A stretch of DNA of 64,000 bases from Promethearchaeota archaeon (GTDB taxonomy: Archaea; Asgardarchaeota; Lokiarchaeia; Sigyniarchaeales; SOKP01): NCBI GenBank assembly GCA_048939995.1, contig JBHLOY010000008.1, forward strand, positions 106,835 through 170,834, read 5' to 3'. A program made the position numbers and the translations under genes. This document shows, piece after piece, positions 16,551 through 32,248 of this stretch. The number at the start of each line of letters is the position of its first letter. Position 1 is the stretch's first letter. A model generated the notes under the pieces. That model saw only the letters and a program-made list of their open reading frames with translations. It was not told where the DNA came from and did no database searches.

Positions 16551-16925
16551 ATGAGAATGTCAACATATACTTTCATGATATCTACTGAGCCGTATAAGTT
16601 CGAAGCAGTTGATACTTTGCTTAATTTATGTAGAGCAGTGTTACAAAAAGGACATAATATTAAGGGAATATTTTTTTACGGAAGCGGTGTCTATAATATT
16701 AAAAAAGATATTGAAACTGGTATTACTGTTCGTAATTTACCAGCACGTTTGGAAGAATTTATTAAGGAGAATCAGATTCCAGTCGCTGGGTGTACAACAT
16801 GGATTGGACTTTGTGGATTAAATGAGCATTGTTTTATTGATGGTGCAAAAGAAGAAGGATTGGGTGAATTGTCCAATTGGACAGCAGAATCAGATAAACT
16901 AATAATGTTTGGAACAGGGGGATAA
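16551..16925 (+). CDS. dsrE: DsrE/TusD sulfurtransferase
   Basis: EPY, IFFYGSGVY, active-site-position Cys in VAGCTTW, GLGEL. Confidence 0.85.
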   Translation: MRMSTYTFMISTEPYKFEAVDTLLNLCRAVLQKGHNIKGIFFYGSGVYNIKKDIETGITVRNLPARLEEFIKENQIPVAGCTTWIGLCGLNEHCFIDGAKEEGLGELSNWTAESDKLIMFGTGG

Positions 16926-16930
16926 GGAAA

Positions 16931-17299
16931 ATGATCAAATCGGTTGTAATAGTAAGTGACCAATCTCCAGTCGGAAAAAACTCTGCCATTGAAGCTTTAA
17001 GGCTAGGGTCAGGATTTAGGGGATTAGGGGAGGAGATTGACTGCCAGGTGGTACTTATGGGTGATGCGGTTTACTTATTGAGTAAACACGCAGATCCCTC
17101 TAAAATTGGAGTTGATTCTTTTGATGAACCAATGGAAATGGCGGAATTGTCTGATTTAGAAATATCAGTACTTGACAGCGCTATAAGTGATGCTGGATTA
17201 ACAAAAGAAGATCTTGTGGAATTTGAGGGTTTAAAGATAATCGATCTCAAAACTCTTGCAGAAATAATCGAAAATGCCGATACTACATTTAGATTCTAA
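16931..17299 (+). CDS. dsrF: DsrF/TusC family protein
   Basis: SPVG..SAIEALR, LMGDAVY; directly follows dsrE. Confidence 0.8.
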   Translation: MIKSVVIVSDQSPVGKNSAIEALRLGSGFRGLGEEIDCQVVLMGDAVYLLSKHADPSKIGVDSFDEPMEMAELSDLEISVLDSAISDAGLTKEDLVEFEGLKIIDLKTLAEIIENADTTFRF

Positions 17300-17782: not shown

Positions 17783-18199
17783 TTGGTAGAAAAAATGAAC
17801 TTTATTGTAAAAGACAAATCTTTTGAAAAGTTTATGATGATGACAATCTTGGGAACCACTGGAAGTGCAATGGATGTGGAAATGAATTTCTTTTTCACTT
17901 TCTGGGGATTAAACCTTTTAAAGAAGAAGTTTAAGCCCAAAGTAGCCGGAATGCCAACACCTATGAAAGGTATGGCAGCTGGAATGTTCAGGAAACGATT
18001 AAAGAAATTTGGTATGGAAGATCCATGGGCCTTGATCAAAGAAGCTATTGACGAGGGAAAAATGAAACTATATCCATGTCAAATGACAATGGATTTAATG
18101 AACATTAAAAGAGAAGAAATGTGGGATTTTGTAGAAGATCCTATCGGTGCAGCTGGTTTCATAGAAATGGCTGATGGTGGCCAAGTAGTCTCATTATAA
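17783..18199 (+). CDS. DsrE2-type (DrsE_2) sulfurtransferase
   Basis: FFFTFWGL and CQMTMDLM signatures. Confidence 0.85.
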   Translation: MVEKMNFIVKDKSFEKFMMMTILGTTGSAMDVEMNFFFTFWGLNLLKKKFKPKVAGMPTPMKGMAAGMFRKRLKKFGMEDPWALIKEAIDEGKMKLYPCQMTMDLMNIKREEMWDFVEDPIGAAGFIEMADGGQVVSL

Positions 18200-18239: not shown

Positions 18240-18800
18240 ATGTCTGATGTGGAAGAAGAACAACATCGGGAATTTATGATTGATGAGGATTTTGACTCAG
18301 AGTTTTTTAGAAATATTGAACGTAGATCAAATATATTAAAATGTATCCAATGCGGCACTTGTACTGCCAGTTGTGAAAGCGGAAGATGGACCGCATTAAA
18401 AACACGTTCAATTATCAGGAAAGTTGTGCTAGGAGATTTATCGGTATTAAAGGATCCTGATATTTGGTTATGCACAACATGTTATCAGTGTTATGAACGA
18501 TGCCCACGAGATGTAAGGCCTACAGATGTAATTATGGAATTACGAAATTATGCTACTAAGTTAGGAAACATTTCTCCTAATCATAGAGCGGTTGTTGGAT
18601 ACTTGAAACAATTTGGGCATGCAGTACCCATAAATGATGAGATAAGGAAGCGAAGAGTTGAATTAGGTTTAGAAGAATTACCTCCTACTGCATTCAAGTT
18701 TAAGCAAGAGGGGGATGATAAAGATTTAAAAAATATTGAAGAAAAAATGTTTGATTTACCTCCTGTTAAGGAGGAAAAAAAGAAAAAAGAGGAGGCATAA
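18240..18800 (+). CDS. hdrC: Heterodisulfide reductase subunit C
   Basis: CIQCGTCTASC and WLCTTCYQCYERCP; GHAVPIN. Confidence 0.95.
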   Translation: MSDVEEEQHREFMIDEDFDSEFFRNIERRSNILKCIQCGTCTASCESGRWTALKTRSIIRKVVLGDLSVLKDPDIWLCTTCYQCYERCPRDVRPTDVIMELRNYATKLGNISPNHRAVVGYLKQFGHAVPINDEIRKRRVELGLEELPPTAFKFKQEGDDKDLKNIEEKMFDLPPVKEEKKKKEEA

Positions 18801-18803
18801 AAA

Positions 18804-19718
18804 GTGGTAAAAGAAAAAACTTTTGCGTTTTTCCTTGGTTGTATCATGCCCAACCGTTATCCTGCGATTGAAAAGTCAACCAAATTTGTTATGGAAAAGT
18901 TAGGATACGAGATTTTAGACATGGAAAGAGCAACATGTTGTCCTGCACCTGGTGTATTTCGCTCATTTAACAAATTTGATTGGATGGTTGCAGCAGCTAG
19001 AAATCTTTGTATCGCTGAAAAAATGGATGCTGATATTTTAACAGTATGTAATGGTTGTTTTGGTACACTTCAAGAAGTAAATAAACATCTTAAAGAAAAT
19101 GAAGATCATAGAGATAAGGTAAATGAGAAGTTGAAAGAAATTGGAGATTATCAGTTTCAAGGAAAAATCAACGTCCGACATGTAGCAGAAGTTCTGGGAT
19201 ATGAGGTTGGACCTTGGGGGATTGAAGATTATATTGTAAGGAAACTGAATGCTAAGGCGGCTGTTCATTATGGATGCCACTTTTTGAAACCAACAAGGAT
19301 TCGAGAAATTGAAAGTTCTGAAGGACCAACAATTATCGAAGAATTCGTGGAAGTCTTAGGAATACAATCAGTTAGATTTAAAGAACAACTAACGTGCTGT
19401 GGCGCAGGAGGAGGTGTAAAAGCATATTCAGGTGATGCAAGTATGACAATTTTTGCGGAAAAAATGAAGAATATTGATGAAGTGAAGCCAGATTTTATAT
19501 TAGATATATGTCCCTTCTGTCATTTACAGTTCGAATCGGGACAGGATTACTTAAACAAAAACAAGGCATGTAATTATGATTACCCTGTAATCCACCTTTC
19601 TCAATTAGTTGCATATTGTATGGGCATGGATCAAGAATTTGTGGGTTTACAATACCAATTAATGGGTCGGGATTATATTTTTGGGGAAGTTGAAGCGAAA
19701 AGAGAGGAGGTAGCGTAA
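18804..19718 (+). CDS. hdrB: Heterodisulfide reductase subunit B
   Basis: Two CCG domains: FLGC, CCPAPG, CNGC, HYGCH, CCGAGGG, CPFCHLQF. Confidence 0.95.
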   Translation: MVKEKTFAFFLGCIMPNRYPAIEKSTKFVMEKLGYEILDMERATCCPAPGVFRSFNKFDWMVAAARNLCIAEKMDADILTVCNGCFGTLQEVNKHLKENEDHRDKVNEKLKEIGDYQFQGKINVRHVAEVLGYEVGPWGIEDYIVRKLNAKAAVHYGCHFLKPTRIREIESSEGPTIIEEFVEVLGIQSVRFKEQLTCCGAGGGVKAYSGDASMTIFAEKMKNIDEVKPDFILDICPFCHLQFESGQDYLNKNKACNYDYPVIHLSQLVAYCMGMDQEFVGLQYQLMGRDYIFGEVEAKREEVA

Positions 19719-21749
19719 ATGACTGTCAAAGAAGAAAAAGTAAAAGAGACAAATGACACTCAAGAGTCATTAGAGCATGAGGAGAGTGAACCTAGAATTG
19801 GAGTGTTTGTTTGTCACTGTGGGCATAATATAGCTGGTACTGTTGATGTTGCTGAAGTTGCAGAATATGCAAAAAGTTTACCGAATGTAGTGAAAGCAGA
19901 ACATTATATGTTTATGTGTAGTAAACCAGGCGTCCAAATGGTTAAGGATTCAATTAAAGAATTAGGAGTAGATAGAACTGTGGTTGCCTCATGTTCAAAA
20001 AATCAACACGGAAGAACCTTTGCTAATGCCATCCAAGAGATGGGTTTAAACAAGCATCGTCATCAACAAGTAAATATTAGAGAATTTGATAGTTGGGTGC
20101 ATCAAAAAGAAAAGGATAAAGCAACTAAAAAAGCAGAAAGATTAATTGAAGCAGGGGTCAATAGAGCACGTAAATTAGAAGATGTAGAAACTCGGAGAAT
20201 TCCTACAACCAAAGCTGCATTAGTTATTGGTGCAGGTATTGCCGGTCTTCGAGCAGCCCACGATCTAGCAGAATTAGGGATTCCAGTTTATCTGGTTGAG
20301 CGAGAATCAACTATAGGAGGACATATGACCCAATTAAACAAGACCTTTCCAACCTTAGAATGTCCCCAGTGTTCCATATCTCCACTTACTAATGGAGTTG
20401 CGAATCATCCATTAATCGAACTTTATACAAATGCTCAAATTAAAGAAGTAGAAGGTTCAATGGGTAATTTTGAAGTGGAAATTGAAATCAAACCACGATA
20501 TGTTAAAGATAATTGTACTTCGTGCGGGGAATGTGCAATTCATTGCCCTGTAGAAGTTCCCAGTGAATGGGATAAAGGCATGTCTATAAGAAAGGCTATT
20601 TATAAAGCATATCCTCAAGCTATCCCAGCCACATATGTGAGAGACAAGAAAAATTGTATCGAGTGTAATACATGTATTAATGTTTGTCCAGTTCAAGCTG
20701 TTGATTTTTCAATGGAACCAGAAACAAAAAGATTTAAAATAGGCTCTATAGTTGTAGCTACTGGGTATGATGAATACGATCCTTCCGAAATTGAAGCTTA
20801 TCATTATAAACAAGAGGGTTATGAAAATGTTATAACCCAACTGCAGGTAGAACGGATGCTTGCTCCTGGCTCTTTAACTAACAGTCAAGTACTAAGACCT
20901 TCTGACGCTAAAATCCCAAAAAATGTAGTGATGATTCAATGCGTTGGAAGTAGAAATGATCAGGTAGGGAATATATATTGCACAGGAGTTTGTTGTAAAT
21001 TTGCGATTAAAAATGCTCGAATTATTAAGGAAATGTATCCTAATTCTAATGTTACCATATGTTATATAGATGTAAGAACTCCTGGGTTAAATTTTGAGGA
21101 ATTATATAAATCCTCCCAGGAAGTGGGAGTACGATTCATAAGGGGAAGACCTTCTGAAATTCTTCGAGATCCTATTTCTGGAGAATTAAGGGTAATAGTT
21201 GAAGATACATTAAGTCAAACACCATTGAAGTTAAAAGCAGATTTAGTAGTATTATCTGCAGCCATGGTTCCACCAGAAGGAATCGGTCCTTTAGGTTCAA
21301 AATTGCATGTTCTTCGATCTAAAGAAGGGTTTTTAAAAGAATTTCATATTAAGATGAATCCCACCTTAAGCAGTAAAGGTGGTATTTTTTTAGCTGGAGC
21401 AATTCAAGGTCCAAAAGACATTTCAGAGTCTGTAGCTCATGCTGGAAATGCTGCTGCATTAGCAGCTGCTCCCTTAGTAAAAGGATATATTGAAAAAGAA
21501 ATGTTAATCCCATCCATAGATTTAGACTTATGTGTTAAATGCGGGCTTTGTAAAACTGTATGTGCTCCTGCTGCGATTGATATAAATGAGGATGGAATCC
21601 CTAAGATTAATGAGATAGCATGTAAATCATGTGGTATGTGTATGCCTGCATGTCCAACAGGGGCTATTCAATTGTTAAATTTTAGTGATGAGCAACTATT
21701 AGATGAAATTGTTGCTGTATCTGGAGGTGTTATATGCGAAAATGAGTGA
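19719..21749 (+). CDS. hdrA: Heterodisulfide reductase subunit A (flavin-bifurcating type), Cys form
   Basis: CHCG.NI, GAGIAG, KTFPTLECPQC, inserted and C-terminal 2x[4Fe-4S] domains, CVGSR...CTGVCC, ERM, GPKDI. Confidence 0.96.
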   Translation: MTVKEEKVKETNDTQESLEHEESEPRIGVFVCHCGHNIAGTVDVAEVAEYAKSLPNVVKAEHYMFMCSKPGVQMVKDSIKELGVDRTVVASCSKNQHGRTFANAIQEMGLNKHRHQQVNIREFDSWVHQKEKDKATKKAERLIEAGVNRARKLEDVETRRIPTTKAALVIGAGIAGLRAAHDLAELGIPVYLVERESTIGGHMTQLNKTFPTLECPQCSISPLTNGVANHPLIELYTNAQIKEVEGSMGNFEVEIEIKPRYVKDNCTSCGECAIHCPVEVPSEWDKGMSIRKAIYKAYPQAIPATYVRDKKNCIECNTCINVCPVQAVDFSMEPETKRFKIGSIVVATGYDEYDPSEIEAYHYKQEGYENVITQLQVERMLAPGSLTNSQVLRPSDAKIPKNVVMIQCVGSRNDQVGNIYCTGVCCKFAIKNARIIKEMYPNSNVTICYIDVRTPGLNFEELYKSSQEVGVRFIRGRPSEILRDPISGELRVIVEDTLSQTPLKLKADLVVLSAAMVPPEGIGPLGSKLHVLRSKEGFLKEFHIKMNPTLSSKGGIFLAGAIQGPKDISESVAHAGNAAALAAAPLVKGYIEKEMLIPSIDLDLCVKCGLCKTVCAPAAIDINEDGIPKINEIACKSCGMCMPACPTGAIQLLNFSDEQLLDEIVAVSGGVICENE

Positions 21750-22194
21750 ATGTGAATATATCAAGCCCGAAGTGCTCGAGAAGATGGAAAATATTGTAGT
21801 GTTTATGTGTAATGAGTGTGGCCAAGGTTCTGCAAATACAGCTGGAGTAGCTCGAATGGCATATAATCCAGCTATACGTATAGTTCGAGTCCAATGTACG
21901 GGTCAAGTAGGACCGATCCAAATTATGGATGCATTGAGTAATGGAGCTGACGCAGTTGCATGTGTCGGATGCTGTCTAGGGGCATGCCATTTCTTCAATG
22001 GTAATATTCTTTCAATGCACCGAATTAAGCTTATGAAGAAGTTATTCAAAGAATTAGGCTACAGTGACCAAATTATTAACCAATACACCTCACGAGCTGC
22101 AGAAGGTGAAACTGCAGTAGGTGATTTTGAAGATATTGTAGAGAGATTAGCAACTGCAATTAGAGAGGAGGCGACATTCAAAGATGGATGTTAA
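21742..22194 (+). CDS. mvhD: MvhD [2Fe-2S] subunit, Cys form
   Basis: FMCNEC, RVQCTG, GADAV...GCCLGACHF; start moved to ATG 21742 behind GGAGGTG. Confidence 0.88.
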   Translation: MSECEYIKPEVLEKMENIVVFMCNECGQGSANTAGVARMAYNPAIRIVRVQCTGQVGPIQIMDALSNGADAVACVGCCLGACHFFNGNILSMHRIKLMKKLFKELGYSDQIINQYTSRAAEGETAVGDFEDIVERLATAIREEATFKDGC

Positions 22195-23419
22195 AGTTTT
22201 TCAATTTAATGGATGCAATAAATGCTTTAATGAAACTATTCTATTAAAAGCAGATTCAAACCATAAAATTGGGTTTGTATCTAATCCTAGGAATTGGAAA
22301 GAGGAGAAAATTGATGTTTCTGTAATTACGGGTTATTTATTACCAGAGGATAAAGAGACTTTAGATAAAATTATAAGAAATTCAACAAAAATTATTGCAT
22401 ATGGAGATTGTAGCGCTACTGGTGGAGTTTTTGCCTTATCCAATCAACGGGGTCATAAAGTAACACCTTTAAGAAAGATGCAGGAAGGTATCTTGAATGT
22501 GTATGGTTGTTTGGGTGAAATAGAAGAACTAGAAGCATTAATTATAGGTAAAGATTTACCGAAACTAAATAATTTATGTATTGTATGTGGAAGAAAGAAA
22601 ACGTGTGATTATTTAGAAGAAGTCAAGCGTCAAATAGAATTAGATGACGAAGAGAAATGTTTTAATGATCTTGGATACTTATGTAATGGATTTATAGCAA
22701 AAGAATGTAAAGAACGATGTATCGATTACAATGCGCCCTGTCGTGGTTGCAAACCTATAATTGAACGTTCAGGAATCAGAATGCTGGGAATGTTTGGAAC
22801 TTTAATGGGAAATATTGAAGTCTCTACAGAGCATTCTGAAAAGGGAGCTACAGATAAACTAGCAGATAATGATGACGATGTTACGGCAAGTTTACCTGAT
22901 ATCGTTGGTAATTTCTTTAGATTCACGTTATCTACCTCTGGTTTGCCTAAAGGGAGAATCAACTCTTCAGGAAGCCTATTAGAAGATGTATTTACAGGGA
23001 GATTAATAGAAGAATTACCTTTAATTACGGGTTTATTGGGGGGAGATCGCTCGATTTCACTAACGCTTAAAGTCCTAGAGACCTATGAAGAAGGTAATAA
23101 TATAGAAGTAAGTGAGACTACAAAACAATATCGAAAGGAATTATTAGAGTTAGAAAATGAATTACTAACAACAATAGAATCCAAAGATCCAAAAAAATAT
23201 AAAGAGGTGACTGATAAGATTCGAAAAATTGCTGGTAATATGAATTTATCTAATCTCTACTATGGGGGATTTAAATCACAAATTAATGAGAATGATAATT
23301 TTGAGGACTATAAAACCCATGTTTTTGATGTGGTTGAAGGTACTTATAAAAATGGTTCGATTGAGCTTACAATTGATTCCATAGGTATTGTAAAAGAAAT
23401 AAAAATTAAAGAGGGTTAA
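22184..23419 (+). CDS. MvhG-like Fe-S small subunit fused to a degenerate, Cys-free NiFe large-subunit-like domain
   Basis: GCNKC, AYGDCSATGG, YGC, CIVC, CF..LG.LC.G, C...C, CRGC; C-terminal LEDVFTGRLIEELPLITGLLGG resembles the large-subunit L1 region without Cys. Confidence 0.75.
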   Translation: MDVKVFQFNGCNKCFNETILLKADSNHKIGFVSNPRNWKEEKIDVSVITGYLLPEDKETLDKIIRNSTKIIAYGDCSATGGVFALSNQRGHKVTPLRKMQEGILNVYGCLGEIEELEALIIGKDLPKLNNLCIVCGRKKTCDYLEEVKRQIELDDEEKCFNDLGYLCNGFIAKECKERCIDYNAPCRGCKPIIERSGIRMLGMFGTLMGNIEVSTEHSEKGATDKLADNDDDVTASLPDIVGNFFRFTLSTSGLPKGRINSSGSLLEDVFTGRLIEELPLITGLLGGDRSISLTLKVLETYEEGNNIEVSETTKQYRKELLELENELLTTIESKDPKKYKEVTDKIRKIAGNMNLSNLYYGGFKSQINENDNFEDYKTHVFDVVEGTYKNGSIELTIDSIGIVKEIKIKEG

Positions 23420-23421
23420 AC

Positions 23422-25890
23422 ATGAGTTTTGAATTATTAAAAGTTGAAATTGTAGACGCTGGCCTTTGTCAAGGATGCGGCTTATGTGCTGGATCGTGTA
23501 AGCATATTGAGATGGAAGTAAAGCGTCCATCCCTTAAAGACTACTGTATTTTAGAGAGAGATGGTCAAGATTGTGGAAAGTGTTATCAGAACTGCCCTCA
23601 AGTTATTCAAAAGAAGTTTGAGGAAAAAGAGCCGTTAGCTTTATATTCTTTAAGGAGTAAGAATCTTGATGTTCTATCTAAAGCTGCTAGTGGAGGCTTT
23701 ATCACTACTTTTGTTAAGGAACTTTTAGAGAACCAGACACTTAAGAAAATAGTAATGGTACATGAAGAGGATGAAAAACCAATTGCGGAAATTGTTTCAA
23801 ATCCTGAAGAAGCGGTTAAAAAAGCAGGAGTAGTTTATGGTAGATCTGGAGTGTTAGAGCGGTTAGTAGAAATTACAGGCGAATCTTTTGATCAAATAGG
23901 TATTGTTGGTGTGCCCTGTGAAATGCGTGGAGCTGCTGAAATAGAAGAGGAAATGAAACGGGACATTCTAAAAATTGGATTGTTTTGTAATTCACAAATT
24001 CGTACCGAAGAAACAGATAAAGGCTTAGTATGCTCTCCATGCTGTAATGGCTGTCCTTCTGGAGTAAATGCTCAGGGATATATTTCATTAATACGTCAGG
24101 GCAAATATCAAGATGCTGTAAATCTAATTAGAGAAAACAATCCGCTACCATCAATATGTGGTCGCATTTGTACTAATGAATGTGAATATGGATGTACTTT
24201 AATCGGAGACGACCATCCCGTCGCAATTCGAGAATTAAAGAAGTTTGTAACGGAGTGGGAGATCGAAAAAGCAAAAAAAGAAGTAAAAAATATACCGAAA
24301 TTGAAGAAGAATGCTAAAAAAGTGGCAATTATTGGATCTGGTCCCGCAGGTTTAACTGCGGCTTATTATTTGAGAAGAATGGGATATGTAGCAACTATTT
24401 TCGAAAAAACCGATCAGACAGGAGGGATGCTACGATTTGGAGTACCCCAATTTCGATTACCTAACTATGTCTTAGATTATGACGTTGAAAGGATAATAGA
24501 ATCTGGAGTTAAAGTAGAACTTAATAAACCATTAGGACATGAAATGACCATTGAGGATTTGAAAAATAGTGGTTTTGAGGCAATTTTTATAGCAACAGGT
24601 CAATATAAGCCTCGAACCTTGCATTTAGAAGGAGAAGAGCTTCCAAATGTATTTGTGGCAATCAGTTTCTTAATGGATAGAAAATACCGTTATTGGGAAA
24701 ATAAAGAAGAATTTAAAGGAAAAACTATAGGGATAATTGGAGGTGGCCCTGTTGCTGTTGATGTTGCTCAAACTGCATTAAGGTTAGGTGCAGAAAAAAT
24801 TCATTTAGTAGATATAATGTCAGAAGAACAACTAGAATTAGTTTTAAAGGATATTCCTGAAAATGAAATGGCTTTCATGCAATATCACTTCAAAACATCC
24901 ACTTCAAAAATTACACAGAATGATGATGGCAAATTAGTTTTGAATTGTTATAACATAGAATGGGGAAAACCAGATGAGAATGGAAGGAGACCATTAAATA
25001 AAGTACAACAATCCGAATTTGAAATTCCTATTGATAATATCGTAATAGCAGTTGGTCAAGCCGTTGATTTTGACCAGATAGATGTTGCTACTAATAACAA
25101 GTTAGAAAAAGAACGCAATAAAATCAAGGTAAATGAAATTACTTTTGAAACAAATATTCCAGGAGTTTTTGCTGGAGGAGACATCATTAACAATTCCAAA
25201 GCTGTAGCTATTGCCGCAATAGCACACGGAAAAGAAGCAGCAATTTCAATAGACAAGTACTTGAAAGGAGAAAATTTAGTAGATGGACGATATAAGAGAG
25301 TAAATTCATTTTTCACTGGACCTAATAGACCTCCTAAAGATTACTCTTTGAAACCAGAATCCTTAGAGGAAGCAACTGAAGAGATAAATTGGTCTTTTGA
25401 AGAGATAGATAAGATGTTTAATGAAGATATGGCTTTACAAGAGGCACGTAGATGTTTAAGTTGTAATCATTTCTGTTCCCACTGTCAAGATTTCCCAGCA
25501 ATTTATTCAGATTTAACTGCAGGGGAAATCGGTTCACAAAAGGGATATACTACCGTTGTAGTATGGACTGAACGTGGGAAAGAACTTGTTGAACAGGCAA
25601 TTCAAAAAGGATTGTTTGAACAAGGTAAAGTGAATGAACAAGAACTCAAAACTGCTATCAATTTGAAATCAAAGAGAGAACTTATGATTTTTAAAAAGAC
25701 TCCACGACAATATGTATTGGATTATATTACACTTCAAGGGCCTAGTACAATAAATGATATAGCAAAAAATACTGGAATCGAGGCAAAAAAAGTTAGATAT
25801 GAAGCACTTCGTTTAGTCCAGTTAATGGAATTAGAAATGAAAGCAGATCAGGATATGGATGAACCAGTATTTTCAATTATGTGTGATTAA
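23422..25890 (+). CDS. Chimeric FrhB-family protein with inserted GltD/NfnB-like NAD(P)H:Fe-S oxidoreductase and C-terminal winged helix
   Basis: N-terminal ferredoxin, SGGFIT, VGVPC, IGLFC | CSPCCNGCP, NPLPSICGRIC, GSGPAG, GGGPVAVD, FAGGD, EARRCLSC | CSHCQDF..SDLTAGEIGS..GYTTVVVWTERG | GPSTINDIAKNTGIEAKKVRY. Confidence 0.8.
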   Translation: MSFELLKVEIVDAGLCQGCGLCAGSCKHIEMEVKRPSLKDYCILERDGQDCGKCYQNCPQVIQKKFEEKEPLALYSLRSKNLDVLSKAASGGFITTFVKELLENQTLKKIVMVHEEDEKPIAEIVSNPEEAVKKAGVVYGRSGVLERLVEITGESFDQIGIVGVPCEMRGAAEIEEEMKRDILKIGLFCNSQIRTEETDKGLVCSPCCNGCPSGVNAQGYISLIRQGKYQDAVNLIRENNPLPSICGRICTNECEYGCTLIGDDHPVAIRELKKFVTEWEIEKAKKEVKNIPKLKKNAKKVAIIGSGPAGLTAAYYLRRMGYVATIFEKTDQTGGMLRFGVPQFRLPNYVLDYDVERIIESGVKVELNKPLGHEMTIEDLKNSGFEAIFIATGQYKPRTLHLEGEELPNVFVAISFLMDRKYRYWENKEEFKGKTIGIIGGGPVAVDVAQTALRLGAEKIHLVDIMSEEQLELVLKDIPENEMAFMQYHFKTSTSKITQNDDGKLVLNCYNIEWGKPDENGRRPLNKVQQSEFEIPIDNIVIAVGQAVDFDQIDVATNNKLEKERNKIKVNEITFETNIPGVFAGGDIINNSKAVAIAAIAHGKEAAISIDKYLKGENLVDGRYKRVNSFFTGPNRPPKDYSLKPESLEEATEEINWSFEEIDKMFNEDMALQEARRCLSCNHFCSHCQDFPAIYSDLTAGEIGSQKGYTTVVVWTERGKELVEQAIQKGLFEQGKVNEQELKTAINLKSKRELMIFKKTPRQYVLDYITLQGPSTINDIAKNTGIEAKKVRYEALRLVQLMELEMKADQDMDEPVFSIMCD

Positions 25891-25929: not shown

Positions 25930-26169
25930 ATGAAATTTGATCAAGAGTTAAATGTATGCGGGTTAGTATGTCCCGTTCCAGCGCTTAAGACAAAGAAGGA
26001 ATTAATGAAAATGAGGCCTGGAGCAGTTTTAAAAGTAATCACTGACTACAAACCCGCATCTGAGAGTGTTCCTAGAGACTTAGCTAAACAAACTAAACAC
26101 AAACATTTAGGAACCGAATTCATCGAAGATGAAGAACAATGGTGGATTTATTTTGAAGCTGTTAAATAA
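25930..26169 (+). CDS. tusA: TusA/SirA sulfur carrier (second copy, closes the operon)
   Basis: LNVCGLVCPVP, VLKVITD. Confidence 0.9.
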   Translation: MKFDQELNVCGLVCPVPALKTKKELMKMRPGAVLKVITDYKPASESVPRDLAKQTKHKHLGTEFIEDEEQWWIYFEAVK

Positions 26170-27641: not shown

Positions 27642-30128
27642 ATGTCCCATACAGAATCTAAAGAACTAATTCAGGCTAAAAAACTCATTGATGTATCTAA
27701 ACTCGATGAAGCGGACCACATTATTAAGAATTTTGAGGAAAAGGGAGGTCTAACTCTTCGTGATATAGTTTTCTGTCATTTTCTCAAGTGTAAGCTCTTA
27801 AGTGAGCGTGGATTAAATGAGGATGTTGTCAAACTTGCCGAAAAAACGCTTAAAGAGAGTTCAGGATTAGAAAGAAACCTTTTGTTGGTTGATATTTTAC
27901 TAGAAATGGCTTTAGCCCTATTACGCATTGCTAAAGTAGATAAAGCTTTCGAAATCATTAAACAGGGAGAAGACCTGCTAAAAACTTTAACACAAGAATT
28001 ATCCACAGAGTATAAGCAAAGAGAGGCATATACAGCCTTGCTTAAAGGATGGGCTTATGATCAAAAATCAGATATTGATCAGGCAATAAAACAGTTTGAA
28101 CTCAGTTTATCATTAAGAGAAGAGCTTGGGAATAAAAACGAAATTGCTCAAACACTTGTAGGAATTGCCCACATGTGTATAAAAAGAGGTGAATTTGACC
28201 GTGCTTTAAAATCCCTGGAGCAAGGAGTGGTTTTAGCCGAGGAAGGTGGTAATAAAGGGATTCTAGGACAATATTTATATTATATGGGAAGGGTACATAC
28301 ATTTAAAGTTGATTTTGACCGTAGTAGTATGTATATAAACCGTAGCTTGGCAATTTATAATAACCTTAATAATAAATTTATGATATCAAGGAATCTTGAC
28401 ACTCTAGGGGAAATTTATATGATTAAGGGGGAAATTGATAATAGTATTAGATTTTATGAGCAAAGTTTAGAACTTCTAAAAGAAATTAACAATAAATTAA
28501 TCATGAGTGATGTTTATAATAGTTTAGCTTTCTGTTACAAAATGAAAGGAGAATTAAATCGTGCTTTAGAATGTATAAAACAGGCTATGGCACTAACTAA
28601 TGAGTTAGGAACTTATAATCCCTATAATAATCATTTTCTAGTTCAAATATTTATTGATAAGGGTAATCTTGAACAGGCACAAATTTCACTTCTTGAATTC
28701 GAACAATTGAATAGTCAATACAAAAGTAGATTTATTAATTCAATGTATCTTCTTGATAAGGCTTTACTTTTGAAAACTAGTCCTCGAGCTCTCAATCGTG
28801 GTAAAGCTGAAGAAATACTAAAGCAACTCCTTGAAGATGGAAATTTATATTATGACATAAATTTAGAAGTATTACTTAATTTATGTGAACTACTCCTAAC
28901 TGATTTAAAAGTAACTAATGAAACAGAGATTTTAGAAGAGATTAAACCCCTTATTATCCAACTGTTAGATTTCTCTGAAAAGTCTCTTTCTTTTTGGGTT
29001 TTTGGGGAAACTTGCCTTCTACAAGCAAAATTGGCATTAATAGAATTGAATTTGGAAGAAGCTCGACGATTAATGACTAAAGGACAACAAATTGCAGAAA
29101 AATATGGACTTATTCAACTAGCTATAAAGATTTCAAACGAACATGATCAAATGCTTAAAAAACTAGAACTTTGGGAAAAAATAAAGGCCTCGAAAGCGCC
29201 CTTAGCAGAGCGTATAGAATTATCCCGCTTAAACGAACAAATGGAGGGAATGGTAAAGAGTCGCATAGATAAAATCCCAAAATTAGTAGCTGAACAGCCA
29301 GTTTTACTTACTATCATGTCAAGACAAGGGAGTATATTATTATCAAATCCATTTACTGCTGATGTAAAAATTGACAGCACTTTTTTTAGTGAGTTTCTAT
29401 CCTCTTGTAATACCTTTTGCGACCAAGTTCTTTCCGAATCATTTGATCGTGTGAAATTCGGTCAACATACAGTGCTTATCACAGCAATCGATTCTTTCTC
29501 TGTATGTTATATGTTCCAAGGGCAGACATACAGTGCCCGACAGAAATTACTCCACTTTTCAGATGCTATTAGAAAAGAACCTGAAATTATGAACAAACTA
29601 AAAGATGCTAATAGCAAGAATATAGAGATAAATGTAAATGAAACAGCATCTCTTGAGGAATCGATTTATGAAAGTTTTCTTTCAGATTCAGAGCAATTTC
29701 AGATGCCATTTAAGGCTTATGAAGGAGATGAATCATTTATTTTTGTCAGTTATTCTCACACTGACAGACTGCAGGTATATCCCATAATTGATTACCTTAA
29801 TAAGACCGGCATAAACGTTTGGTATGATGAAGGAATTCATGTAAGCGAAGATTGGAAAAACATAATTGCGGATAATTTGGAGCGATGTAGTGCTTTTCTC
29901 ATATTCATTACACCACATATAATTGATTCAGTAACAGTAAACAAGGAGATTAGCTTCGCCTTAAAAAAGCAAAAACCATTTTTTAGTATATACCTAAAAG
30001 AGACTCAATTGCCCAGTAAATTAGAATTTGAGATTGGAGATATTCAACACATGAAAAAATATCTTATGTCTGAAACCGAATTTTATAATAAATTAAATTC
30101 CTTATTTGGGAGAGTTTTAAAAAAGTAG
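27642..30128 (+). CDS. TPR-repeat protein with longin-like domain and C-terminal TIR domain
   Basis: TPR helices; PVLLTIMSRQG..FFSEFLSS..FDRVKFGQHTVL; TIR motifs FIFVSYSHTD, VWYD and SVTVNKEISFA. Confidence 0.85.
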   Translation: MSHTESKELIQAKKLIDVSKLDEADHIIKNFEEKGGLTLRDIVFCHFLKCKLLSERGLNEDVVKLAEKTLKESSGLERNLLLVDILLEMALALLRIAKVDKAFEIIKQGEDLLKTLTQELSTEYKQREAYTALLKGWAYDQKSDIDQAIKQFELSLSLREELGNKNEIAQTLVGIAHMCIKRGEFDRALKSLEQGVVLAEEGGNKGILGQYLYYMGRVHTFKVDFDRSSMYINRSLAIYNNLNNKFMISRNLDTLGEIYMIKGEIDNSIRFYEQSLELLKEINNKLIMSDVYNSLAFCYKMKGELNRALECIKQAMALTNELGTYNPYNNHFLVQIFIDKGNLEQAQISLLEFEQLNSQYKSRFINSMYLLDKALLLKTSPRALNRGKAEEILKQLLEDGNLYYDINLEVLLNLCELLLTDLKVTNETEILEEIKPLIIQLLDFSEKSLSFWVFGETCLLQAKLALIELNLEEARRLMTKGQQIAEKYGLIQLAIKISNEHDQMLKKLELWEKIKASKAPLAERIELSRLNEQMEGMVKSRIDKIPKLVAEQPVLLTIMSRQGSILLSNPFTADVKIDSTFFSEFLSSCNTFCDQVLSESFDRVKFGQHTVLITAIDSFSVCYMFQGQTYSARQKLLHFSDAIRKEPEIMNKLKDANSKNIEINVNETASLEESIYESFLSDSEQFQMPFKAYEGDESFIFVSYSHTDRLQVYPIIDYLNKTGINVWYDEGIHVSEDWKNIIADNLERCSAFLIFITPHIIDSVTVNKEISFALKKQKPFFSIYLKETQLPSKLEFEIGDIQHMKKYLMSETEFYNKLNSLFGRVLKK

Positions 30129-30304: not shown

Positions 30305-32248
30305 ATGTCTAATTCAGAATCTAAGGTACTCACTCAGGCAAGAAGACTTATCGAAGAGTGTAAACTCGATGAAGCCCTCACACTCTTGAATAGTTACGAG
30401 CAAGAGGAAGGGCTCAGCCATCATGATAGAGCTTCTTGCCATTTAGTTCAATGTCAAATTTTTTTTTGGCAAGGAAAGCTCAAAGAGCTTATTAAACGTA
30501 CTGAACATATATATAGAGAAAGCGCAGAATGGGAAAGTAATCTCTTTATAATCGACAACTTACTTATAATGACGCATGTACAAGTAAAGCTTTTTAGATT
30601 TGATATAGCTTTTAATTTGATTAAGCAAGGAGAAGAACTTATAAAGTCACTTCCACAAGAATTAAAAGAAGCCTGCAAGCAAAGGGAAGCTTATCTAGCT
30701 TTTATAAAAGGATATTATTACAACTTAACCAGAGATTTAGATACCGCAGATCTTGCACTGAAATATTTGGAGCGCAGTTTAGTACTTCGAGAAGAATTGG
30801 GGATTCAGGCTGAAATTTCACAGTCTCTTGGTCAGATCGCATGGAATCTATTGATTTTTAAAGGTGAGATGGATCGTGCCTTAAAATATTCCGAGCGAAG
30901 TCTATCTCTTGCTAAAAAAAGTCGCAGAAAGTATTACGTCGCATCTAGTCTTCAGATTATGGCGCTTATTTATGCTTCTCTAGGGGAAATAGATCATTGT
31001 ATAAGAATTAATGAGCAAAGTTTAGAATTTTTCAATGAACTTAGCAATAAATATGGTATGGCATTAGTTCTTAACAATTTAAGTTATGATTATAACTTGA
31101 AAGGAGATTCAGATCGTGCATTAGAATGTATAGAACAAGCTATAGAACTAAACCGTGGTTTGGGGGATCTAAGTCAACTAACTAATAACCACGACTTTTT
31201 AATTGAAATATTAATAGATAGGGGAGATCTTGAGCGAGCACAGCAAAACCTTAACAACTTAGAGCATTTGACGCGTCAATTAAAAAATAAGCAATGGGAC
31301 TTAATGTATCTTCTTGATAAGGCTTTATTATTGAAAACAAGTCTTAGAGCACGCGATCGAGGCAAGGCTGAAGAATTATTGATACAACTCCTTGAAAATG
31401 AGAATAAAACTCATGATCTTAGTTATAGAGTTTTAATTAATTTATGTGAATTGCTCCTAACTGAATTACGAATAACTAATGATCTTAGTGTGTTGGATGA
31501 GTTAAATCAATTCCTTGGTCAACTGTTAGAACTTGCTGAAAAATCGCATTCGTACTGGATTATGGGAGAAACTTATCTTTTACAAGCTAAATTGGCATTA
31601 ATAAAGTTGGACTTTAAAAAGGCAAGAAAATTACTGACCCAAGGACAGCAAATTGCTGAAAAGTTTGGACTAAACGTGTTAGCAATTAATATCTCAGATG
31701 AACACGATGAATTACTTATTCAATTAGAAAGATGGGAGATATTAAAAAAATCTAAAGCATCTTTAGCTGAACGTATGGAATTATCACATTTAGGTGAAGA
31801 TATAAATCGAATGGTTAAAAAGCGTAGAATAGAGTTCAAAGAACCCGTTAATGAACTTCCAGTCGCAATTTTTATTATAGCGGAAAGTGGGTTGCCTGTT
31901 TTCACTCAATTGTTTGAAGTGGGATTATCTTTCGAAAATCATCTTCTTGGAGGATTCTTAACAGCTTTTAATGCATTTAGTGATGAATTTTTTTCTGAAG
32001 GCCTAGATCGTGCTACTTTTGGACAATATACCTTATTAATGAAGTCTATCACACCCTTCTCAATATGTTATCTTTTTAAAGGGAAAACTTACTCTGCTAA
32101 AAAAAGAATAAATTTATTTATAGAAAGTCTAATTAAGGAACAACAAATTTGGCAAACATTTTGCGAATTTTACAACGTAAATCGAGTAGTTCAATTAAAA
32201 GATCTTCCATTATTAAAAGTTCTGATAAAAAAAGTTTTTAAAGATTGA
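30305..32248 (+). CDS. TPR-repeat protein with longin-like C-terminal domain (TIR-less paralog of 27642-30128)
   Basis: Shared blocks MYLLDKALLLKTS.RA..RGKAEE and GET.LLQAKLALI; LLGGFLTAFNAFSDEFFSEGLDRATFGQYTLL. Confidence 0.85.
   Translation: MSNSESKVLTQARRLIEECKLDEALTLLNSYEQEEGLSHHDRASCHLVQCQIFFWQGKLKELIKRTEHIYRESAEWESNLFIIDNLLIMTHVQVKLFRFDIAFNLIKQGEELIKSLPQELKEACKQREAYLAFIKGYYYNLTRDLDTADLALKYLERSLVLREELGIQAEISQSLGQIAWNLLIFKGEMDRALKYSERSLSLAKKSRRKYYVASSLQIMALIYASLGEIDHCIRINEQSLEFFNELSNKYGMALVLNNLSYDYNLKGDSDRALECIEQAIELNRGLGDLSQLTNNHDFLIEILIDRGDLERAQQNLNNLEHLTRQLKNKQWDLMYLLDKALLLKTSLRARDRGKAEELLIQLLENENKTHDLSYRVLINLCELLLTELRITNDLSVLDELNQFLGQLLELAEKSHSYWIMGETYLLQAKLALIKLDFKKARKLLTQGQQIAEKFGLNVLAINISDEHDELLIQLERWEILKKSKASLAERMELSHLGEDINRMVKKRRIEFKEPVNELPVAIFIIAESGLPVFTQLFEVGLSFENHLLGGFLTAFNAFSDEFFSEGLDRATFGQYTLLMKSITPFSICYLFKGKTYSAKKRINLFIESLIKEQQIWQTFCEFYNVNRVVQLKDLPLLKVLIKKVFKD

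Follow-up and report, generated by a model that had tools for sequence, protein, structure and literature searches.

A permuted GltD/NfnB-like cassette nested in an FrhB-like protein of a Promethearchaeota archaeon, a candidate NADH inlet for an Hdr system

The Hdr (heterodisulfide reductase) complexes set the energy economy of many anaerobes, and the donors known to feed them are H2 (Mvh), formate (Fdh) and F420H2 (Elp, HdrA2). The role of Hdr in Asgard archaea is an open question, since methanogenesis is absent there. The present work concerns an 822-amino-acid (aa) FrhB-like protein of a Promethearchaeota archaeon, inside which a GltD/NfnB-like cassette is nested. Its gene lies in an hdr operon within a 64,000-nucleotide (nt) stretch of DNA, here called the window (assembly GCA_048939995.1, contig JBHLOY010000008.1, positions 106,835-170,834 of the forward strand).

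Structures of Elp-Hdr and Fdh-Hdr already show an FrhB-family subunit that feeds Hdr via MvhD (PMC12350162). ElpB of Methanothermobacter marburgensis (8RVU) and FdhB of Methanospirillum hungatei (7BKB) resemble the nested protein in being FrhB-family iron-sulfur flavoproteins with extra ferredoxin clusters, encoded together with hdrABC and mvhD (elpC). They feed electrons to the bifurcating HdrA, and the same role is proposed for the nested protein. However, ElpB and FdhB are F420H2-oxidising proteins with a retained F420 site, whereas in the nested protein the lid of this site is replaced by an NAD(P)H cassette. In addition, the partner of Elp is a truncated FdhA (ElpA), while the partner gene of the nested protein is MvhG-like.

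The cassette itself has been described in other hosts. An NfnB/GltD domain is inserted in HdrA9-11 of ANME-1 (PMC9012536) and in the "type III HdrA" (PMC12054007). Both share with the window protein the cassette family, its nesting within an iron-sulfur protein of the Hdr system and the proposed function as an NAD(P)H electron inlet for Hdr. Their host is HdrA, in which the ferredoxin domain is interrupted, whereas the host of the window protein is FrhB, from which the substrate-binding subdomain is removed. The second group comprises StnC (8OH5) and the NfnA of Bfu-type NfnABC (9BOV, 9N5U), in which electrons from NADPH pass from a non-bifurcating flavin adenine dinucleotide (FAD) through two [4Fe-4S] clusters to the clusters of the host (PMC10482914, PMC11829005). 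In this case a HydBC-type bifurcating enzyme provides the host, its NuoG/Fdh-like subunit. Thus both the cassette and its insertion into HdrA and StnC/NfnA have been published, and no description of a cassette inside FrhB, at the F420 lid, was found in the literature searched, which covered few subscription journals. The points added here are the permutation of the cassette, the accounting of its clusters, the junction of cassette and FrhB ligands, an apparent NADPH-to-NADH switch, a sister fusion of the form HdrC-cassette-HdrB and natural deletion variants.

The FrhB host and the lost F420 lid

The open reading frame (ORF) at 23422-25890 is unbroken, and the following parts can be distinguished in it.

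23422-25890, + strand: nested gene, FrhB-like with a GltD/NfnB-like cassette inside, 822 aa (ORF list and translation; Pfam and NCBIfam scans)
23422-23619, + strand: N-terminal ferredoxin domain, residues 1-66 (Cys 16, 19, 22, 26, 42, 51, 54 and 58 invariant in 32 sequences)
23620-24030, + strand: N-terminal half of FrhB and a short linker, residues 67-203 (A88-A-S-G-G, VGVPC166, IGLFC189; Pfam, 6qgr_B, paralog alignment)
24031-25473, + strand: inserted cassette, residues 204-684, a permuted GltD/NfnB-like module for NAD(P)H, FAD and two [4Fe-4S] clusters (PRK12771; PDB sequence and structure matches)
24316-24426, + strand: FAD-binding Rossmann start with GSGPAG, residues 299-335 (Pyr_redox_2, NAD_binding_8; motif kept in all cassette relatives)
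24727-24825, + strand: NAD(P)H-binding Rossmann segment GGGPVA...HLVD464IM, residues 436-468 (alignment with 12 cassette relatives; tree labels)
25387-25464, + strand: C-terminal cassette element with RCxxC (Fer4_20 profile positions 4-35, E 4.3e-4; local alignment to the canonical GltD N-terminus)
25474-25692, + strand: C-terminal half of FrhB, residues 685-757 (C685-x-x-C688-QDF, A-G-E702-I-G-S; 3zfs_C, 8rja_E, Pfam, paralog alignment)
25693-25890, + strand: winged-helix-like tail, residues 758-822, and the stop codon (model; conserved in the family)

The host is recognised as FrhB on both sides of the insert. FrhB_FdhB_N of Pfam matches residues 75-146 with 36.6 bits (cut-off 22), and FrhB_FdhB_C matches with 67.5 bits (cut-off 23.3) in two pieces that lie about 455 residues apart, since in the whole-genome scan profile positions 2-49 correspond to residues 157-200 and positions 68-148 to residues 656-738. 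The same scans placed Fer4_20 at residues 194-283 (80.4 bits) and Pyr_redox_2 at residues 299-603 (98.7 bits). Among solved FrhB chains, residues 14-138 of 6qgr_B from Methanosarcina barkeri align to residues 75-189, before the insert, and residues 192-256 of 3zfs_C from M. marburgensis align to residues 685-751, after it (E 1.7e-8); residues 272-338 of 8rja_E also align to the C-terminal half. The [4Fe-4S] cluster of M. marburgensis FrhB is held by Cys104, Cys134, Cys192 and Cys195 (PMC3591093). Their equivalents, invariant in the 32 sequences of the nested family, are C166 and C189 on the N-terminal side of the insert and C685 and C688 on its C-terminal side.

The first-pass annotation, made from the letters of the sequence, had claimed a nested insertion rather than an end-to-end fusion, with FrhB resuming after the insert and the four cluster cysteines flanking it, and had expected FrhB_FdhB_N, a split FrhB_FdhB_C, Fer4_20 and Pyr_redox_2 from a profile scan. 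The alignments and scans above agree with it in each of these respects, and its coordinates are exact: IGLFC (residues 185-189) at 23974-23988 and the insert, from C204 to C681, at 24031-25464, or 478 codons. Its description of the insert as a GltD-type module holds for the FAD and NAD(P)H fingerprints, which are intact, and needs revision in that the module is a permuted one of StnC/NfnA type, not a plain GltD.

Mis-assembly, which the same annotation had named as a danger, and a frameshift were both ruled out by the conserved length and architecture of the protein in many independent assemblies. More than 120 full-length proteins of 817-825 aa share 70-92% identity, two deeper lineages (56 and 45% identity) have the identical architecture, and the GC content is even across both seams of the insert.

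The predicted structure was also compared with solved FrhB chains. The AlphaFold2 model matches FrhB 9r51_B with Z 21.5 and a root-mean-square deviation (rmsd) of 3.4 A over 209 of 282 residues (model range 67-764), ElpB 8rvu_E with Z 20.8 and 7bkb_E with Z 20.2. Because FrhB chains align across both halves, the two halves make up one FrhB fold in the predicted model. The first-pass annotation had proposed structure prediction as a test of whether the halves close around one cluster; the outcome holds for the fold, and the cluster loops and seams are poor in the model. FrhB (4OMF, 6QGR, 9R51) and the N-terminal half of Fsr (7NP8) share the core fold (Z 20-21.5, about 210 of 280 residues) and the four cluster ligands with the nested protein, and Fsr resembles it further in having a ferredoxin domain fused N-terminally. 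The nested protein differs from both in that the lid and F420 channel are missing, the QDGG motif is altered, Glu stands for Ser on the side facing F420 and there is an insert of about 480 residues. In the tail (residues 758-822), the model has three helices and two strands with a predicted local distance difference test (pLDDT) score of 77-91, and the Pfam helix-turn-helix (HTH) matches of this segment were all below threshold.

The position of the insert is that of the F420 site. In FrhB, the access channel for F420 is the gap between the main body and the subdomain 128-188 (PMC3930138), and this subdomain contains a conserved turn beside the F420 ring (PMC3930138, PMC3591093). In the alignment, the six canonical FrhB paralogs of the genome all have about 58 lid residues between GLFC and CxxC, which the nested protein lacks. 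It is well supported by these alignments that the replaced stretch is the lid forming the F420 access channel and that the channel is lost, in agreement with the first-pass annotation, which had tied the missing segment to the F420 site. Two further changes affect the same site. The FAD pyrophosphate motif Q/T-D-G-G has become A88-(A/S/T/E)-(S/N/A)-G-G, with its Asp absent in 32/32 sequences of the nested family and present in 6/6 canonical paralogs. Where FrhB has the small Ser of G-S-V-G-S towards the F420 ring, the nested protein has a Glu (A-G-E702-I-G-S), and this position is occupied by Glu in 29 and by Asp in 3 of the 32 family members.

The permuted cassette, its clusters and its nucleotide signature

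The cassette belongs to the family of StnC and NfnA. NCBIfam PRK12771 aligns to residues 203-688 with E 7e-119, at 398 bits and thus below the model cut-off of 516. By sequence and by structure alike, residues 204-683 are matched best by StnC and NfnA, which have the same module limits; the top PDB sequence matches are NfnA 9n5u_A (E 1.4e-89) and StnC 8oh5_C (E 3e-75). Structurally, the cassette model matches 9bov_A over residues 208-683 with Z 25.1, but with an rmsd of 9.5 A across 407 aligned residues, and Z is about 25 for 9bov_A, 9n5v_A and 8oh5_C alike, at 9.5-10.4 A over about 400 residues. A search of 1.8 billion representatives returned thousands of proteins that match solely residues ~204-690, and 12 aligned cassette relatives share the module limits, starting at P-C-x3-C-P and ending at E-A-x-R-C-x-x-C.

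These limits differ from those of a canonical GltD, in which the R-C-x-x-C element and a helix stand N-terminally, directly before C-x3-C-P. In the nested cassette, CxxxCP and a four-Cys motif are at the N-terminal end and RCxxC is at the C-terminal end. The start of the Fer4_20 profile matches residues 658-687, and residues 648-681 align to the canonical GltD N-terminus of a paralog with a local score of 63, as compared with 25 +/- 4.3 for shuffled sequences (maximum 43). When both pieces are joined in permuted order, the alignment score rises from 139 to 188. Because the Fer4_20 start and the GltD N-terminus match at its C-terminal end and the permuted joining raises the score, the cassette is, as judged by alignment, a circular permutant of GltD that was cut within the first cluster-binding motif. 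Its two ends are probably close together in space, since both fall within one cluster-binding motif, which would suit a nested insertion. The protein may thus serve as an example of a one-step exchange of a substrate site, with a permuted cassette dropped into a cluster-binding loop of the host.

Twenty Cys are invariant in the 32 sequences, namely the eight of the ferredoxin domain, the four FrhB ligands and eight in the cassette (C207, C211, C246, C250, C254, C258, C678 and C681); conservation of C204 and C208 does not extend to the deeper lineages. Several StnC/NfnA cassettes carry Lys for the first Cys of the second motif, whereas the window protein has four Cys there. The numbers fit five [4Fe-4S] clusters, with ligands as 8 + 4 + 8, and those of the ferredoxin domain fit two of these. 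The last cassette ligands, C678 and C681, directly precede C685 and C688 of FrhB. Because C681 and C685 are only four residues apart, the cassette cluster bound by C678/C681 would adjoin the FrhB cluster, which suggests a direct path from cluster to cluster.

The fingerprint for FAD (GxGxxG) is present as GSGPAG at residues 305-310. In the second Rossmann fold, strand beta-2 ends with the acidic residue D464 (H-L-V-D464-I-M), where the relatives carry YRR; the Y-R-R is found in 10/10 aligned cassette relatives that are not nested in FrhB and is the NADPH signature of the StnC/NfnA cassettes. StnC, a member of this cassette type, is an NADPH enzyme (PMC10482914). As D464 replaces the YRR of its relatives, the nested cassette of the window clade may, as this exchange suggests, prefer NADH over NADPH.

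Ancestry, distribution and cassette-less forms

Within the nested family, position 464 is D in 30/32 members. The two others are the deeper lineages, of which that at 56% identity (P0126) has E and the deepest, at 45% identity (P0127), has kept Y-R-R. In a FastTree phylogeny of 148 cassettes, with local supports only, the cassettes nested in FrhB form one clade (support 100), from which the YRR member P0127 splits off first. This branching points to a single insertion, followed within the clade by a change from an NADPH to an NADH signature. The sister of the clade is a fusion of the form HdrC-cassette-HdrB (support 99), and 48/148 of the cassette relatives lie inside HdrA.

The sister fusion deserves a separate description. 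P0133 (918 aa) and P0134 (1172 aa) have the cassette flanked by an HdrC-like ferredoxin domain on one side and two HdrB-type CCG domains on the other; its identity with the nested cassette is 53-56%, and many genomes of the window's family encode such ORFs of about 922 aa. The cassette of P0134 comes after the first 83/123 positions of an MvhD domain that is fused to HdrA, possibly a further case of nesting.

Many genomes of the window's family encode the nested protein at full length, as do genomes from two further families of its order, and the database records label the host genomes Promethearchaeota or with other Asgard names. One full-length copy (80% identity) in the genome of another family may be a binning error. 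Elsewhere in the phylum, the match is limited to the cassette part.

Cassette-less forms of 380-381 aa are found in the same operon position (L025:6440-7582 (+), L031:1217-2362 and the cluster P0130), one of them on a contig of 57.8 kb. Sequences from NCBI, JGI and Logan make up the cluster, ten in all, of which five are full length. In these short forms, remnants of the cassette, that is the end of Fer4_20 and the R-C-x-x-C element, are retained and fused to the CxxC of FrhB. They are about 65-75% identical to the nested protein in the common parts, while the deep full-length lineages are 45-56% identical. The view that they are uninserted ancestors was rejected because of the remnants and the closer identity, and on the same two grounds the forms are, by these comparisons, secondary deletions. 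An uninserted ancestral gene was sought in the same operon position, where the sole short forms found carry cassette remnants. The natural deletion variants, together with the deep branch of NADPH type, provide ready-made controls.

The operon, the proposed electron path and its alternatives

The nested gene is the penultimate of a gene series on the plus strand, in the order DsrE-family genes, hdrC, hdrB, hdrA, mvhD, MvhG-like gene, nested gene and tusA, preceded by an AsnC-type regulator on the minus strand.

16551-16925, 16931-17299 and 17783-18199, + strand: three DsrE-family genes upstream of hdrC, two DsrE and one DrsE_2 (Pfam DsrE, DrsE_2)
18240-18800, + strand: hdrC (Pfam, NCBIfam; synteny in relatives)
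18804-19718, + strand: hdrB (Pfam, NCBIfam; synteny in relatives)
19719-21749, + strand: hdrA (Pfam, NCBIfam; synteny in relatives)
21703-22194, + strand: mvhD (Pfam, NCBIfam; synteny in relatives)
22184-23419, + strand: MvhG-like small-subunit protein, 411 aa, the upstream neighbour (Pfam Oxidored_q6, NCBIfam VhuG)
25930-26169, + strand: tusA-like gene, 79 aa, directly downstream (Pfam TusA, E 4.7e-18)

The core order from hdrCBA through mvhD, the MvhG-like gene and the nested gene to tusA is kept down to 45% identity, and the grouping of the nested gene with hdrA, hdrB, hdrC and mvhD, in abutting genes of one strand, recurs in 10 related loci down to this identity. The tusA gene follows the nested gene in 8/8 related loci whose sequence extends past the gene end, and DsrE-family genes are kept upstream in L023, L024, L028, L029 and L030. 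No gene for a hydrogenase large subunit is present in the operon, and two are found elsewhere in the genome.

The MvhG-like gene always adjoins the nested gene in the related loci. Its protein has 13 invariant Cys in residues 1-190, and for its conserved, Cys-free C-terminal half (220 residues) no match to a Pfam family was obtained. Eight relatives, all close, were found when genome contigs were searched with this protein. Its AlphaFold2 model has a pLDDT of 56, and the complex predicted from residues 1-757 of the nested protein and the N-terminal 200 residues of the MvhG-like protein scored 0.00, as compared with a mark of 0.32, a result that counts neither way.

From this context, we consider it fairly probable that electrons enter an HdrABC-MvhD complex, encoded without a hydrogenase large subunit in its operon, through the 822-aa protein as input subunit. 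The Hdr complex of the operon is probably fed by NADH rather than by H2 or F420H2. NADH would be oxidised at the FAD of the cassette, and single electrons would pass through the two cassette [4Fe-4S] clusters, from the distal one of which (C678, C681) they would reach the FrhB cluster directly, past the old F420/flavin site. The further path would lead through the two clusters of the ferredoxin domain, probably through those of the MvhG-like protein, and over the MvhD [2Fe-2S] cluster to the bifurcating FAD of HdrA. At this point the electrons would be split, with reduction of ferredoxin and of a disulfide or persulfide at HdrB. The substrate of HdrB may be protein-bound sulfur rather than CoM-S-S-CoB, as is suggested by the TusA/DsrE genes flanking the operon and by the result that MCR and ComA were not found in the 98%-complete genome. 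The first-pass annotation had proposed that an F420H2-input subunit was turned into a pyridine-nucleotide input for Hdr, and this proposal is partly supported, since the lid is lost, residues of the F420/FAD site are changed, the fingerprints of the cassette are intact and the Hdr operon is conserved. The complete scheme, namely an Hdr run by NADH, bifurcation at HdrA to ferredoxin and TusA/DsrE-carried sulfur, and a cofactor preference retuned from NADPH after the insertion, is put forward as tentative and somewhat doubtful. If true, it would be an energy-coupling reaction new to description, in the closest archaeal relatives of eukaryotes. A conserved NADH inlet on an FrhB scaffold, beside sulfur-carrier genes, offers a concrete reaction for testing.

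Several points weigh against an NADH inlet of this kind. The nucleotide preference hangs on one fingerprint rule, that of an acidic residue at position 464. The AlphaFold2 model is moderate (mean pLDDT 68.5) and poor at the cluster loops and at both seams (residues 190-211, 243-269 and 633-693). The cassette-deleted variants persist in the same operon, so the core would have some role that is free of the cassette. The altered FrhB flavin loops (A88, G91, G92, G136, Y139, G140 and R141) are among the most conserved positions of the family, and for this reason a second flavin may still bind to the FrhB core and take part. Lastly, cofH of the genome scores above the cut-off, and the organism can probably make F420, so that its use is possible as far as availability is concerned.

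The last two points would also be explained by a dual-cofactor enzyme with two flavins, in which the FrhB core still binds FAD and F420 and the protein acts either as an F420:NAD(P) oxidoreductase or as an entry for both donors into Hdr. Combinations of FrhB and GltD do exist, as the tandem fusion P0276 of the same genome demonstrates (912 aa; G000:C17:80315-83053, L001:664-3402). Like the nested protein, P0276 unites a ferredoxin domain, FrhB and a GltD-type flavoprotein in one chain, with an HTH-like segment. It differs in that the parts are joined end to end, FrhB is intact with QDGG and lid, and the GltD, 36% identical to the nested cassette, is of the canonical YRR (NADPH) type. P0276 is likely an F420/NADP-linked enzyme and therefore a better candidate for such a link than the nested protein. 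In the latter, the entire lid of the F420 channel is gone, including the conserved turn near the F420 ring, the QDGG Asp is lost in 32/32 and the Ser beside the ring is Glu or Asp in 32/32, and a two-flavin enzyme is held to be rather improbable.

The three dsrE-family genes and tusA, conserved around the operon, raise the question of direction. TusA and DsrE alongside Hdr-like proteins are a hallmark of sHdr sulfur oxidation. The machine could run in reverse in a similar manner, so that sulfane sulfur delivered by TusA/DsrE is oxidised at HdrB, possibly together with reduced ferredoxin, and the cassette reduces NAD+. The StnC and NfnA cassettes operate reversibly (PMC10482914). However, the Hdr proteins of the window are of the methanogen HdrABC-MvhD type, with HdrA matching the HdrA2 model at 738 bits, and no lipoate-binding protein was seen among the operon ORFs. 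The reaction proposed above could proceed either way and direction cannot be told from sequence, and an oxidative role of the sHdr kind is regarded as unlikely.

GltD/NfnB/SudA-type proteins work alone or in small complexes. The nested protein could accordingly be a stand-alone NAD(P)H:ferredoxin or NAD(P)H:polysulfide oxidoreductase that is co-transcribed with Hdr and stays outside its complex. This is very unlikely in our judgement, since relatives down to 45% identity strictly maintain the gene order at mvhD and the mvhG-like gene, and the MvhG-like gene and the nested gene abut on the same strand, the stop of the former ending at 23419 and the start of the latter being at 23422. Furthermore, docking to Hdr in the structures of Elp-Hdr and Fdh-Hdr is through the FrhB core and the ferredoxin domain.

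The genome contains eight other matches to the C-terminal domain of FrhB, six of them over the whole domain, and 14 copies of mvhD. The pairing of FrhB with MvhD is common in it, as an mvhD gene is located no more than about 1.1 kb from each of at least three canonical frhB paralogs. Four of the 14 mvhD (FlpD) copies (G000:C8:7436-7804, C26:44470-44838, C17:73918-74286 and C21:23539-23904) carry two in-frame TGA codons each inside the domain match and may therefore be MvhD paralogs that contain selenocysteine. Three of these four are located within about 1.1 kb of a canonical frhB paralog. Downstream of tusA, two large paralogous ORFs of 828 and 647 aa, alike in their N-terminal parts, occupy 27642-30128 and 30305-32248 of the window (+), and the 828-aa ORF has a C-terminal stretch that appears TIR-like by eye.

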